From Schmidtea polychroa (lineage: Eukaryota): 64,000 nt of DNA. The first letter of the stretch is position 1. Each line of letters starts with the position of its first letter. The notes beneath the pieces were generated by a model, which was not told the DNA's origin, did not search any database, and worked only from the letters and a program-made list of their open reading frames with translations. Where the stretch lies: positions 226,424,001 to 226,488,000 of the forward strand of contig CM097885.1 in the NCBI GenBank assembly GCA_044892525.1, given 5' to 3'. The position numbers were made by a program, and so were the translations under genes. This document shows, piece by piece, positions 3,029 to 7,600 of the stretch.

Positions 3029-6000
3029 GTGAAAACATTATTTGAATCAGACAGCTTAACCAACGAAAGTGAAAACAGCGACGATATTAAAAGAAACGAA
3101 TTATATCCGGTAACTGATATCAAACCAACAGACAAAGAAGATAGTAGTTCAGGCATAACAAGTTTGTGTCGAGATATAATGTTAGACGGAAACCAAGTGA
3201 ACAACCCGAATGGGTCAGAGTCGACATACACACCAGAGATAAACCATGTCAACGTCAATGTTGGAGAATTTAGAGAAAGATTTCGAGGAGAACCATTCGA
3301 TGGGAATATTAATGAACTAGAAACGTTTATAAAAGAATTCGAGGTATATATTACGATATGTCACTGGCCAGACATAGTCGTACGAGAGCGAATACCATTA
3401 TATTTAAGAGGAAGTGCACAAGATGTATATTTAGAGGCAAAGTGTGATGCAACAAAACTAAAAACATGGAAATCAATAAAGAATTTTTTAATAAAAACAT
3501 TCGGTAGCAAAAGGGAAGTAAATCGCAAAATGTTGGATTTTCTGCATCGAAAGCAGAAATACAATGAGTCAAACGCACTATATGCATGTGAATTAAGACG
3601 ACTAGCAAAAGAAGCATTCGATTCAAATCAAACAGTTCCGGAAGACAAGATAATAGCCGTATTCGTAGAGGGTATGAAAAGAAAGGACATACGAGCAACA
3701 GTGGGTTGCCGAGCACCAGACACGCTCGAGGAAGCATTAAAAATCGCTAATAAATGTGAAAACTACTTGACTCCAGTACAAGTAGCAGCAATGGCAGCAG
3801 TACCAATAGCTACAACACCAACAACGACAACCGAAATTAATCCAACCAACAATGAAATTCTAGGAATGAATCAATTTATCTCAGAATCGCAACAGTTGTT
3901 CAAGGCGCCAAAAACGACAAATCCAGATAACAGAGGTAATATTCAATTTTACACTAATAATTTCAGGAGCAACGAGAACAATAATCGGAAGTGTAACATA
4001 TGTCAACGACTAGGACATTGGAGCAACGAGTGTTATAAGACAAGGATGTGCCAAAATTGCGGTAAAATGGGTCACACAGAAAATATATGCCGAGGACCAA
4101 TGATGTCGATGAGAGGAGGAAGGACTAGAACCTGCTACAGTTGCAACCAACTTGGACATGTGGCGAGAGAATGCGCGATGAAGACAAAACATAATCAACC
4201 AAGAGCAAACGATCCAAGTCAAAATATACAAATCAACATCATGCAGAAAATTGAACAGTTGAAAAAGATGATCCAACGGATACCAGAGGATATCCGGAAA
4301 CGACCAACAAGAAAACAACAAGACCAGCAACGAATCGAAGGGCAGAGACCACTAAACGAAAAAGCCAGAGAAATTCAAAAAAGATGGAAAAAGCGAGAAA
4401 CCAACACCGGAAGAATAAATATGATGAGATTAATGAACAAAGGGGAACCGCACACTGCGGAGCAGTGTGTTAACAAGGAAGGGAGCGATATGACCGTAAT
4501 CAACGAGACAAAAGTGATAAAAGAAAATGGGTCACATCAATTGACGGAGCAATTGACAGAACTGAGTAGCGAGGATAAAATAAAAATAATACAAGGGTTC
4601 ACCAAAGAAGAAAAAGAAAAGAGACGAAGAAGAGATGAAACAGGGCACGAACCAAAAAGCAACGAGATTGTTACAAAGAATCGAATTCAGAGGGTATTAT
4701 TACAAAAAATTGAAAATAGAATTAGAAGAGAAGAACCAAATTTAACGGATGAGCAAGTAAAAGAAAAAGTAAAAGACAACTGGTTCAGGAAAAATGAGTG
4801 GTTCGAAAAGAAAGAACCAAGTAATAGAGCCAATATAAACATGCTGAGACAAATACAGAAGGATCAGACGGACCAGGAAGACGAGACAAGTGCGGTGAGT
4901 AGCCTGAGAAGTGAATTATTTCAATCAAGTGATGAAAATAATGAACAAGGAACACCTCAAAATAACGAAGAGGGTGAGAGCGACGATATGGAATCACCGA
5001 TAGAAAATGACGATGAGGAAATATTTGAGGAAATTTCCGACACGGTATCGGAAAGAGAACGAAATGAGAGCTATATCAACGAACCAACATACAGAAAATG
5101 TATAAAACTGATAACTCAAGCATACCAGTGGGAAGGAGGTATATTAACGGCAACATGGAAAGATTTGGCGACGAAATATAAAGGAAAATTGAAAGAAGTT
5201 GATCCAGATCAATACCAAGTAAGTATTCAACACCCTGAAACTCAGATGCAGATTATTGAATTAAAAGTGACAAATATCGATGAACTGTATAATTGGGCAC
5301 AGGAAAAGATGGGAACAAGTCATAAGAATAAACAACTATACGATAATGGTTACAAAGTTAAAATGAGCATACATCTAGTAGATATGATGAGATGGCCAAA
5401 CGAAGTTAATATCTTAATCTTAAAGAAAAACAGAGACAGCGAATCAGTAACGGAAATACTGAGGAAAATCCAACAGATATTCAACAATGAAGTGGAACCA
5501 GAAATAGAAAAGATTGAACAAAAGATAATGAAGGAAAATCAAATAATCGTAGTAAAACAAGCAATCGATCAAGCGAAGAAATATATTAACAGATTTAGGG
5601 AAAGATGGCCGCAGCTAATGAAACAGTTTGTCAAAGACGTACGGGATACTGAGATTATGGGATTTGAATATAAACGAGCAACGGAGTTGATATCAAAATA
5701 TGGTGAATACGAGAGAATCAGATGTGAACAAGAATTACCATGGCCATCCAACAGAAAAGTGACAATAGTAAGAGAATCACTGAAGAATAGTCATTTAAAT
5801 AAACACGAAGAAATGATCAAAACATCACATGTCGAAGACGACATTTTTGGAAAAGGCCGGAGTGGAAAAAATGACAAAGACCATAACGACAAAAATGAGG
5901 AAGATGACGGGAACCATGAAAGGAACAACATAAATGGGAACTCAGGCGAACGAGATAATGAAGAAGACAAGGAGTCAGAAGATGACGACGAAGGCTTGAA

Positions 6001-7600
6001 GGAGACTGAGGAAAACTCAGACCAAAGTGAAGACAACCAACATAATGAAACAGAGAACGACAAACGAATGTCCCCACTGCATAACACAGTAATGCGGAAG
6101 AATCTAAACCAGTCACTCCTACTACAAAGTATCCTAATAATACTAACGTCAATTTGCCTAACAGAAACGAAAAATACGCGAATTACGAGAGGAAATCTGA
6201 AAGAAGGCGAACTATTCATGATAAAAGTCAGCGGCAACAACGGAAACGCGGTCGGGATATGCATCCAATTGATGGAAGGAACCGGAGTAAGTTGTGATTT
6301 TAGAACGATAACAAAAGGGAGGATTTTCAATAGTCAAAATGGAGAACCTGAATTATGCGGAGACTACAACATTTGCGAAGACATAACATCAAAAAAAAAA
6401 GAATTGGAAAGAGCTAACGAAACCGGAGTACATGTCGCAATTAAAGCTACAATGGAAGGTATCGAAATAATAGATAAAGGAAATTTGCCAACAACGCAAA
6501 TATGTTTTAGAGACGACGAAGACATATGTATAACGGTGGACATGAAACGAGATCGCGAATTTTTTTGGACAAACGTAAAACCAAACACCAACATGGTGGT
6601 ATGCGCAGGTACCCAGGCAATAGTGGTATGTAAAGCAGTTAAAACCGCGCAAATAAAAAGCAGGCCAAAAATTATGGCTAGTAAACGATATCAACCAAGG
6701 ATCAAACCGGCAATTAAGAAACCCCAGAAACAATCCTGTACGGGAATGATAAGAGGACAGCACCAAACCAAGAAAAACACAACAGTAATATGGATCAAAG
6801 ATGAGAGACGAGAAGTACTAGTAAATGTCGAATTCAACAAGAAAAGAGAAGAAGTAATCACGGTCAGAAACCAAGGTGAAGAACCAATAGTAAGAGTATG
6901 TGTACTAAACAGGACAGGAATAGTCGACTGCATAGAAACACTACTTGACAAAGGTGCAGAAGTTAAAATGACAATAGGAGAAAGTAAGGGACGATACCAC
7001 ATATGCGTTCTTAAAAACGGAAGCGAGTTAAGTTCATGCCAAGCAATAACCCGACAACGACCACGGATGATAAACATACCATTGACAACCAAAAAACCAA
7101 AAGAAGTGGAAAAGCCAAAAGGAAACGAACATCTAACGGCAGAAGAAACGAAACAGTTATACCAGATGCTCAAGAAAAATAAAACACAAGAGGCAACTAC
7201 AACAGAAACTAAAATGATGATAACGACAGGAAAATTCAACAACGAGACACTGATAACCGTTAAAATGATGTGGATCGCTAGCGCAATAATGAGTGCAGTG
7301 ATAACATCAATAATAATCCAATGGATAAGAACCTCCAAAATATGTAAACAAAAACCTAAAGGCAGAAAAAGATGGCCACAAGTGGAGAATTCCGAATATG
7401 GTATTCCAACAGAAAACCCGAATCCAGAAGAATACGAAGCGATTGAAGATCCAAGGTCAAGCGGACTATGGACGCAAGAATTACTCAGAATACAAACACT
7501 AGACGATTGGGTAAACGAATTTGACATATACCGGCTAACGGATGAAAGATATGGGGGGATGCGCACATTGCATTCAGGTCCCCTGGCAACAATGGTATAA
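3029..7600 (+). CDS. gag: Gag (capsid + 3 CCHC) fused in frame to a ubiquitin-like segment and a C-terminal type I membrane protein; no pol (1523 aa from GTG, first ATG 3179)
   Basis: Capsid motif FRGEPFDGN...HRKQKYNESNALYACELRRLA. Knuckles CNICQRLGHWSNEC, CQNCGKMGHTENIC and CYSCNQLGHVAREC (3992-4174). Hydrophobic signal-like LLLQSILIILTSICLT (~6116). TM MMWIASAIMSAVITSIIIQWI (~7265-7327). Confidence 0.9.
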   Translation: MKTLFESDSLTNESENSDDIKRNELYPVTDIKPTDKEDSSSGITSLCRDIMLDGNQVNNPNGSESTYTPEINHVNVNVGEFRERFRGEPFDGNINELETFIKEFEVYITICHWPDIVVRERIPLYLRGSAQDVYLEAKCDATKLKTWKSIKNFLIKTFGSKREVNRKMLDFLHRKQKYNESNALYACELRRLAKEAFDSNQTVPEDKIIAVFVEGMKRKDIRATVGCRAPDTLEEALKIANKCENYLTPVQVAAMAAVPIATTPTTTTEINPTNNEILGMNQFISESQQLFKAPKTTNPDNRGNIQFYTNNFRSNENNNRKCNICQRLGHWSNECYKTRMCQNCGKMGHTENICRGPMMSMRGGRTRTCYSCNQLGHVARECAMKTKHNQPRANDPSQNIQINIMQKIEQLKKMIQRIPEDIRKRPTRKQQDQQRIEGQRPLNEKAREIQKRWKKRETNTGRINMMRLMNKGEPHTAEQCVNKEGSDMTVINETKVIKENGSHQLTEQLTELSSEDKIKIIQGFTKEEKEKRRRRDETGHEPKSNEIVTKNRIQRVLLQKIENRIRREEPNLTDEQVKEKVKDNWFRKNEWFEKKEPSNRANINMLRQIQKDQTDQEDETSAVSSLRSELFQSSDENNEQGTPQNNEEGESDDMESPIENDDEEIFEEISDTVSERERNESYINEPTYRKCIKLITQAYQWEGGILTATWKDLATKYKGKLKEVDPDQYQVSIQHPETQMQIIELKVTNIDELYNWAQEKMGTSHKNKQLYDNGYKVKMSIHLVDMMRWPNEVNILILKKNRDSESVTEILRKIQQIFNNEVEPEIEKIEQKIMKENQIIVVKQAIDQAKKYINRFRERWPQLMKQFVKDVRDTEIMGFEYKRATELISKYGEYERIRCEQELPWPSNRKVTIVRESLKNSHLNKHEEMIKTSHVEDDIFGKGRSGKNDKDHNDKNEEDDGNHERNNINGNSGERDNEEDKESEDDDEGLKETEENSDQSEDNQHNETENDKRMSPLHNTVMRKNLNQSLLLQSILIILTSICLTETKNTRITRGNLKEGELFMIKVSGNNGNAVGICIQLMEGTGVSCDFRTITKGRIFNSQNGEPELCGDYNICEDITSKKKELERANETGVHVAIKATMEGIEIIDKGNLPTTQICFRDDEDICITVDMKRDREFFWTNVKPNTNMVVCAGTQAIVVCKAVKTAQIKSRPKIMASKRYQPRIKPAIKKPQKQSCTGMIRGQHQTKKNTTVIWIKDERREVLVNVEFNKKREEVITVRNQGEEPIVRVCVLNRTGIVDCIETLLDKGAEVKMTIGESKGRYHICVLKNGSELSSCQAITRQRPRMINIPLTTKKPKEVEKPKGNEHLTAEETKQLYQMLKKNKTQEATTTETKMMITTGKFNNETLITVKMMWIASAIMSAVITSIIIQWIRTSKICKQKPKGRKRWPQVENSEYGIPTENPNPEEYEAIEDPRSSGLWTQELLRIQTLDDWVNEFDIYRLTDERYGGMRTLHSGPLATMV

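Follow-up and report, generated by a model that had tools for sequence, protein, structure and literature searches.

Why would a retroelement whose other genes are lost or decaying keep one very long open reading frame (ORF) intact? The question is raised by a 64,000-nucleotide stretch of the Schmidtea polychroa genome (hereafter the window; GenBank assembly GCA_044892525.1, contig CM097885.1, positions 226,424,001 to 226,488,000 of the forward strand). A first-pass annotation had described here, in an element without pol, a flawless 1523-amino-acid (aa) fusion of Gag to a membrane protein, and had inferred selection on that ORF, either in a satellite mobilised in trans or in a Gag domesticated by the host. 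We propose that the element, here called E1, belongs to a multicopy pol-less family, a deletion derivative of Burro-type elements, which are giant gypsy-like long terminal repeat (LTR) retrotransposons of planarians (PMC6431247; what we say of published work refers to the available parts of each source). Probably, E1 is copied in trans by a pol-bearing sister family, E3, and its frame is kept by Gag packaging that favours its own RNA in cis.

A multicopy family without pol

Coordinates are positions in the whole window, and amino-acid numbers are counted from 2882 unless an ATG is stated. The frame is open from stop to stop over 2882-7600 on the forward strand (1572 codons); the count of 1523 aa starts at a GTG at 3029, and the first ATG, at 3179, gives 1473 aa. 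In a Pfam search the only match in the ORF was zf-CCHC (E=1.7e-10), with none to protease (PR), reverse transcriptase (RT), RNase H (RH), integrase (IN), env or ankyrins, which bears out the description of the element as pol-less. The env and PR-RT-RH-IN domains of an autonomous Burro polyprotein are found neither in the ORF nor elsewhere in E1. With its paired TG...CA LTRs, tRNA primer-binding site (PBS) and target-site duplication, E1 is a Ty3/gypsy-type LTR retroelement of ~20.7 kb (interior 10.6 kb, LTRs 5.03 kb); the LTRs end TGTTGGG..CCACCA, the target duplication is GTCA, and the PBS is complementary to genomic tRNA-Pro(UGG) genes.

The window copy is one of many. A 25-mer just past the second of two deletion junctions (junction 2, below) has 104 genomic matches at <=1 mismatch, junction-region probes match all four large contigs (reversed controls, 0), and a search with the C-terminal protein scored 104 of 531 candidates, all 91-100% identical; the copy number is at least 104-114. 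We compared 87 copies, namely 80 of the 98 listed loci on large contigs (60 from the better-scoring part of the list and 20 mostly from its diverged end, unplaced contigs being left out), 6 obtained earlier and the window copy. The frame reaches at least 1460 aa in 44 of the 87, a share possibly biased upward because the locus list came from a protein search; "flawless" is thus true of the window copy without being special to it. Pairwise distances between copies have a median of 2.1% and a maximum of 5.2%, perfect 4-bp target duplications flank 15 of the 20 copies for which flanks were fetched, and LTR pairs diverge by 0-0.16% in the 10 open copies where they could be measured, against 0.58% and 1.74% in two old broken ones. 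Pol is absent from every copy examined, so that E1, amplified without RT or IN and with an intact Gag ORF, has the properties of a Gag-retaining non-autonomous LTR element. Tandem E1 copies that share an LTR, with a period of ~16.0-16.4 kb, occur at C3:62.46-62.48 Mb, C1:85.87-85.89 Mb and C2:16.29-16.31 Mb.

From which element does E1 derive? The PBS 20-mer occurs 1044 times in the genome, and the first 30 such loci on contig C1 sort into 2 of E1, 10 of the clade of element 2 (a pol-bearing element nested in the 3' LTR of E1), 11 of E3 and 7 of a further family, E4. Among these, E3 carries the LTR end of E1; E1 and E3 together have 324 LTR/PBS junction matches, of which ~200 fall to E3 by subtraction. 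One E3 locus (E3c, L166-L168) encodes a 4688-aa polyprotein with MATH, env, PR, RT, RH, IN and ankyrins, ending in the same membrane module as E1. Residues 5-951 of E1 are 72% identical to this polyprotein and residues 964-1572 are 52% identical. The CCHC-bearing Gag of E1 is therefore collinear with a Burro-type polyprotein and E1 appears to derive from the Burro layout, an assignment that runs through the domain layout of E3c and the published description (PMC6431247) rather than through the named Burro1-4 sequences. Judged by sequence, the closest pol-bearing relative of E1 is the sister family E3, and not element 2. The kinship to element 2 put forward in the first-pass annotation holds as homology but not as closest relationship, the Gag core being 41% identical to element 2 against 77% to E3. 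Element 2 was accordingly rejected as the parent of E1; the 40-mer before its LTR also differs.

Compared with an E3-like polyprotein, E1 has lost ~9.6 kb through two in-frame deletions, the first removing 283 aa after ...CEQE and the second ~2925 aa after a MATH relic of ~25 aa. The in-frame jump to VEDDIF that had been placed near ~5770 is real, but it is not a single deletion: LPWPSNRKVTIV..LNKHEE (5735-~5809) is a relic of the MATH domain found in E3, with loss on either side. As had been reported, VEDDIF (5831) matches VEDDILN of element 2, at 33948, and in element 2 the homologous points are ~10.07 kb apart. The accessory ORFs of E3 (RING, TRAF-like, BIR-plus-RING-like, a label given by eye, and coiled-coil; E3c, L167-L168) are all lost or broken in E1, and most of the 3' cargo of E3 is absent. 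We found no E1-type parent without the deletions: frames at the 104 scored loci do not exceed 1587 aa, and six 5'-truncated E1 copies that were checked have no pol upstream. Since a probe before junction 1 has 112 matches and one across it 114, there is no room for an undeleted E1-type family. One gapped pattern for an intermediate with the first deletion only gave 0 matches. Three junction-1 loci outside the listed junction-2 and C-terminal rows, at C1:193831340(-), C1:206135325(+) and C4:9155390(-), are truncated copies or possible intermediates.

The features of E1 and of the element nested in it are as follows.

-5841..-814 (upstream of the window): 5' LTR of E1, 5.03 kb, with the PBS just after it
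1..445 (+): decayed RING-finger accessory ORF, beginning ~20 nt before the window, by pairwise comparison with the open 160-aa RING ORF of E3
1000..2200 (+): non-coding leader tract, near-identical to that of E3, with length-variable repeats at 1882-2109
2882..7600 (+): the Gag-membrane fusion ORF (1473 aa when counted from its first ATG, at 3179)
3179..4231 (+): capsid-type part of Gag with three CCHC zinc knuckles (zf-CCHC E=1.7e-10); identity 77% with E3, 41% with element 2
4232..5734 (+): Burro-type extension of Gag, ending at junction 1, 75% identical to E3
5735..5809 (+): MATH-domain relic between the two in-frame deletions, aligning to E3 aa 1251-1273, inside Pfam MATH_2 1183-1327
5807..6076 (+): acidic low-complexity linker from junction 2, with VEDDIF at 5831
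6104..6160 (+): internal hydrophobic stretch, a predicted signal sequence (Kyte-Doolittle peak 1.76), conserved in E3
6161..7090 (+): predicted ectodomain of Cys-paired, beta-rich modules, the last a predicted Ig-like beta-sandwich
7265..7600 (+): predicted transmembrane helix (7265-7321, hydrophobic peak 1.83) and cytoplasmic tail, 66% identical to E3
7728..8790 (+): decayed 3' accessory relics, namely a homologue of an E3 151-aa ORF, the 5' end of the TRAF ORF and part of the last accessory ORF
9768..9807 (+): 40-nt stretch preceding the 3' LTR, shared without change by E1 and three E3 copies but not by element 2
9808..14276 (+): first part of the 3' LTR, starting TGTTGGG, which differs from the 5' LTR by 8 substitutions and 4 indel events
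14277..44423 (+): element 2, from a different Burro-type clade, 30 kb long with pol and env, inserted into the 3' LTR of E1 with a TTAA duplication
44424..44992 (+): remainder of the 3' LTR, followed by the GTCA duplication at 44993-44996

Selection on the frame

The accessory relics supply a neutral yardstick. Those in the window (about -20..445 and 7728-8790) bear stops and frameshifts, as originally described, and the whole family shares the decay: against the open E3 frame, the RING relic has 4-9 breaks in 77/77 copies and the first 3' relic 5-11 breaks in 81/81, and 6-9 breaks in the 0.94 kb of cargo are near-universal. In pol-bearing families the RING ORF is open in 21/21 sampled loci. 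The cargo break rate predicts 28-42 fixed breaks in the E1 ORF, where none is fixed.

Variants within the family tell the same story. In 83 copies (four tandem or adjacent duplicates were dropped), each variable column was scored as private to one copy or shared. Stops are 30 private to 2 shared, against 154 to 124 for synonymous changes (p=1.2e-5). Frameshifts are 37 to 4, against 123 to 104 in the leader and dead cargo (p=8e-6) and 66 to 33 in the dead cargo alone (p=0.003); private frameshifts may include homopolymer assembly errors, which leave the stop-only test unaffected. Disruptions are depleted among shared variants in both parts of the ORF (Gag, 39 private to 3 shared, p=2e-7; membrane part, 23 to 2, p=0.002). 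Disruptive variants have thus been purged among copies that left descendants, which is selection at the level of the element family.

At the amino-acid level the two parts differ. We compared the ratio of nonsynonymous to synonymous change (omega) with a neutral expectation based on the spectrum of private mutations in non-coding sequence. In Gag, the omega of private variants is 1.01-1.02, showing that the method is calibrated and that selection does not act after insertion. For variants present in at least 4 copies, omega is 0.45 in the capsid region and knuckles (p=0.014) and 0.62 in the extension (p=0.034). Gag is therefore constrained at the amino-acid level and the membrane part is not. 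A signal from conserved versus variable sites (p~0.01) was dropped, being biased by ancestral alleles and null once corrected.

Does the window copy itself need selection to explain its open frame? Over 5030 aligned bases its two LTRs show 11 substitutions (0.22%), besides 4 indel events; at this divergence the ORF is expected to carry 4.8 substitutions and to have a chance of 0.21-0.77 of staying open, and the nearest sister of the copy, 0.21% apart, is frameshifted. The insertion is young and all copies share the decay of the cargo, so no locus-specific selection is required, a situation for which the first-pass annotation had itself allowed. Its case for selection on the ORF is borne out for the element family and lapses for this locus.

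Helper, mechanism and rival explanations

If E1 has no pol of its own, which element moves it? Over the leader (~1000-2200), the median identity of E1 to E3 is 88-98% per 100 nt, against 62-86% for the flanks and coding DNA. Fixed differences number 0 in 679 columns at 1150-1880 versus 88/438 and 65/432 on either side, and sites polymorphic in E3 also segregate in E1 at 27/59 in the leader versus 11/155 outside it (p=5e-10). The leader of one E3 copy matches those of E1 copies better (up to 98%) than it does the other E3 leaders (95.5-95.7%). The leader match of E1 to element 2 spans 44 nt only. A search for further E3-like patches in E1 copies found only 2/87 that passed a >=93% filter, both in the leader. 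The leader thus appears to have been exchanged repeatedly between E1 and E3, and template switching in mixed particles would be the simplest cause. By its position and behaviour, the leader is a candidate packaging or dimerisation region, with a folding energy that is not unusual (z=-1.2) and no Rfam match in 1-10000. The shared LTR end, PBS, 40-mer before the LTR and leader polymorphisms make E3 the likely helper. E1 copies have fresh duplications and near-identical LTRs without a pol of their own, and mobilisation by the enzymes of a partner is likely; of the two branches left by the first-pass annotation, the satellite mobilised in trans is the one supported, and the Gag domesticated by the host is not.

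A second pol-less LTR family, the unrelated, Gag-only E4, has the same tRNA-Pro PBS and 336 LTR/PBS junction matches. Its Gag is 33-36% identical to those of E1, element 2 and E3. Among 25 E4 loci, 14 retain a full-length gag, which is open at 760 aa in 12 and privately broken in 2; in 6 others gag is decayed and missing its 5' 868 nt, and 5 have no gag match in the stretch fetched. No pol of its own was seen within 20 kb at 5/5 loci checked, and no parent was found. A Gag-only, pol-less pattern recurring in this genome is suggested. An E4 tandem array at C1:77.26-77.32 Mb has a period of ~13.5 kb. Separately, tRNA-Pro(UGG), the primer tRNA for the 1044 PBS sites, is encoded by a tandem array of genes at C1:130.90-130.95 Mb with a period of 475 bp, the probe having 1580 matches genome-wide.

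The membrane module was not captured from elsewhere: it is the C-terminus that the parent polyprotein already had, and the fusion amounts to a shortened version of that polyprotein. In all pol-bearing families examined, the polyprotein ends in an acidic linker, a signal-like stretch, an ectodomain, a transmembrane segment and a tail; the element-2 clade (34200-35186) has one beta module, and E3 (L167:6560-8146) and E1 have more. Of the 15 Cys after aa 1090, 14 are kept in E3, and there are 6 N-glycosylation sequons. An AlphaFold2 model of the membrane part has a mean confidence score (pLDDT) of 49, with ~60-80 for the last domain, and a single-sequence fold scored 36; the last module, the only one that folds in the model, gave generic Ig-like matches (VIA) with Z 8.2-8.5 and a root-mean-square deviation of 2.3-3.1 over 71-88 residues. 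The ectodomain had no Foldseek match at E<=0.001 and no Pfam fn3 or Ig match, although it may resemble FN3. Searches for homologues of the membrane part found none in two word indexes, no usable match in the ESM Atlas, a best E of 0.4 by sequence in the PDB, and, with HMMER in 1.84 billion proteins, 5 matches, all repeat or ankyrin artefacts; in the searches made, the module has no relatives outside this genome.

We envisage the following cycle. E1 RNA would be transcribed from the LTR. Among 24 sequencing runs, no RNA run was listed as containing the sequence; contigs of run X5, which is only guessed to be RNA, cover all of 1-10500 including the junctions, and run X22 (polyA RNA, under another organism label) has 1 read on the E1 region. 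The E1 RNA would be translated into Gag and a signal-anchored membrane protein, as selection on the frame suggests, with the same Gag-then-signal topology as the parent polyprotein. E1 Gag and the leader would favour capture of E1 RNA in cis, an advantage that is strong but not absolute. The E1 product may co-assemble with the E3 polyprotein, to which the shared cis sequences point and which would supply PR, RT, IN and env; tRNA-Pro would prime reverse transcription at the PBS, and E3 enzymes would complete it and integrate the copy, leaving the 4-bp duplications seen in the genome. Template switching in the mixed particles would then keep the E1 leader in step with that of E3. The weakest step is the role of the membrane module, which most likely either keeps nascent Gag on the membranes of the helper polyprotein or is a passenger kept open for translation only.

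Several results weigh against this proposal. The membrane part has an omega of 1.01 for variants in at least 4 copies and a private omega of 0.71 (p=0.014), and for the ORF as a whole the uncorrected private-versus-shared contrast of nonsynonymous and synonymous changes does not reach significance (p=0.17). Tests of radical versus conservative change (BLOSUM) and of conserved sites are null after bias correction. Between E1 and E3, at synonymous divergences (dS) of ~0.6-1.0, omega is 0.16-0.24 in Gag and 0.27-0.39 in the membrane part, and the dead cargo, at 0.12-0.24, looks like the ORF; the cargo must therefore have died recently compared with the E1/E3 split, so the low omega between E1 and E3 is no evidence of selection during the pol-less phase. 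We infer the order of pol loss and cargo death. A subfamily of five copies shares an ectodomain stop and 4 of the 5 are also broken in Gag, yet three of these Gag-broken copies have 4-bp duplications of their own and two have LTRs only 0.02-0.08% apart. Broken templates can hence move, and the frame aids spread without being strictly required. E4, pol-less like E1, has the subfamily of 6/25 loci that lack 5' gag. Finally, the leader comparison used three E3 leaders only, and gene conversion between genomic copies could also account for leader sharing.

How do other explanations fare? We see some chance, though a modest one, that E1 is the same satellite but that selection favours translation across the frame, whether by sparing the RNA from nonsense-mediated decay or by coupling its routing to ribosomes, rather than the protein itself, with at least the membrane part a passenger. 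Both deletions are in frame, and membrane disruptions are purged (23:2, p=0.002) although shared omega there is 1.01; for the mouse IAP elements, the title of a 2008 paper by Saito, cited in PMC7411935, stresses translation. Against such a reading stand the protein-level selection to which a Gag omega of 0.45-0.62 over a private baseline of 1.0 points, the persistence of 14 of 15 Cys and both hydrophobic segments, and the private omega of 0.71 in the membrane part. A purely neutral history, in which a recent in-frame deletion derivative was amplified before its ORF decayed, would suit the youth of the copies (median distance 2.1%) and the recent death of the cargo; it is already contradicted by the 6-9 near-universal cargo breaks against none fixed in a five-times-longer ORF and by the stop and frameshift tests (p<=1e-5), and we give it scarcely any credence.

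A benefit to the host, through a locus or family serving as a domesticated Gag or restriction factor, for instance by pol-less Gag poisoning E3 particles, is very improbable. Gag without protease could interfere with helper assembly, and the LTRs of the window copy (0.22%) are older than those of the 10 measured open copies (0-0.16%). A domesticated Gag would however be expected at few fixed loci, with decayed LTRs and selection after insertion, whereas E1 has >100 dispersed copies, half of them broken, with LTRs 99.5% alike and private branches that combine many stops with an omega of ~1.0; the frameshifted sister and the 0.21-0.77 chance of an open frame speak against it at the window locus as well. 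It is likewise improbable that the satellite depends on another helper, either the nested element-2 clade or a lost E1-type parent. The tRNA-Pro PBS and TGTTGGG start are common to all families and the element-2 clade is abundant, but the LTR end, the 40-mer before the LTR and the leader match E3 and not element 2, and the junction-1 counts (112 before, 114 across) tell against a lost parent. More tentatively, our proposal of an E3-copied derivative might be extended to make E1 a capsid-forming satellite with its own Gag and an Ig-like surface protein, one that takes RT, IN, PR and env from E3 and re-acquires its leader by recombination, in a genome whose giant retroelements have given rise to two or more independent satellites that keep Gag and to one derivative without it; we regard this extension as doubtful.

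Known systems and neighbouring sequences

Gag-retaining non-autonomous LTR elements are known, and the reason for keeping Gag has mostly been assumed. The nearest parallel is the mouse IAP 1Δ1 fusion, which "facilitates retrotransposition in cis" yet needs Gag and Pol in trans (PMC7411935). Like E1, it is non-autonomous, actively spreading, and fuses Gag to the downstream polyprotein by an in-frame internal deletion. E1 arrived at its single fusion ORF by two deletions, losing ~9.6 kb including all env and pol, whereas IAP 1Δ1 is a gag-pol fusion of an endogenous retrovirus (PMC7411935). In E1, Gag is instead fused to a predicted membrane protein, and the coding DNA is ~22-30% diverged from that of the likely helper while the leader is shared. 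The population signature in E1 would fit a comparable promotion in cis, but broken templates moved too.

The plant TR-GAG elements (PMC4350172) and the wheat "semi-autonomous" RLG_Sabrina_SA and RLG_WHAM (PMC9744471) also lack RT and IN, keep an intact Gag ORF and spread in trans, and other Gag-retaining plant elements have been described (PMC13570524). TR-GAGs are <4 kb with Gag only, and Sabrina and WHAM keep Gag-protease, whereas E1, from an animal, measures ~20.7 kb and has LTRs of 5 kb, a predicted membrane module and no protease; E4 resembles TR-GAGs in its single 760-aa Gag ORF but not in its ~13.5-kb repeat unit. Cis sequences track the autonomous partner in plants too (LTRs in RLC_Angela; PMC9744471), although E1 exchanges an internal leader and not the whole LTR. 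The available parts of the plant accounts (PMC4350172, PMC9744471) report no selection test like that made here.

E3 and element 2 share the Burro layout of ~30 kb and one ~4700-aa polyprotein with Gag, CCHC, MATH (in E3), PR-RT-RH-IN and ankyrins, with env in frame between gag and pol and with RING, TRAF and BIR-like accessory ORFs (PMC6431247). The available parts of that account deal with autonomous elements and decaying fragments and mention neither amplified pol-less families nor a C-terminal signal-ectodomain-transmembrane module. We found no account of pol-less Burro families in the literature searched, which excluded subscription papers and supplements; repeat libraries in the supplements may list them.

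Approximately 100 natural copies offer a population-genetic read-out of cis selection on a frame, with dead cargo and private variants as neutral controls. The double deletion maps the Burro parts needed in cis (Gag, leader, LTR ends) against those that can be borrowed (env, pol, and RING, TRAF and BIR-like cargo). In the leader common to E1 and its likely helper we see a candidate packaging region, and the membrane module that E1 has kept draws attention to a part of Burro-type elements for which no database relatives were found. For planarian work, the caution is that reads and copy counts assigned to Burro-type elements take in pol-less families, which may be about as numerous as the autonomous ones.

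Element 2 itself accounts for the insertion noted in the E1 LTR (14277-44423, TTAA duplication). Its Pfam domains comprise Gag (matching Retrotrans_gag), a Monjiviricetes-type fusion protein, protease, RT, RNase H, integrase, ankyrins, RING and MATH. The Ubl and Bcl-2 labels given to the part missing from E1 derive from the Burro account (PMC6431247) and were not confirmed by Pfam, whose best hint is OTU1_UBXL at E=0.11. The LTR pair of element 2 is 2 substitutions and one 156-nt deletion apart. Two frames, separated near 26262-26428, make up its polyprotein, whereas many relatives in the genome have a single one of ~4730 aa; the clade is abundant (150 scored among 343 candidates, 91-100% identical). 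A 249-aa ORF in its LTR (43110-43859) has no Pfam match, and the 5' LTR copy of this ORF is shortened by the 156-nt deletion. Beyond E1, the window holds a host ORF of 948 aa with an NADFDGD motif at 49027-51873, presumably part of an RNA polymerase largest subunit, and, at 58901-59647, a truncated LTR start, 81% like that of E1, which opens with TGTTGGGCTAGA.

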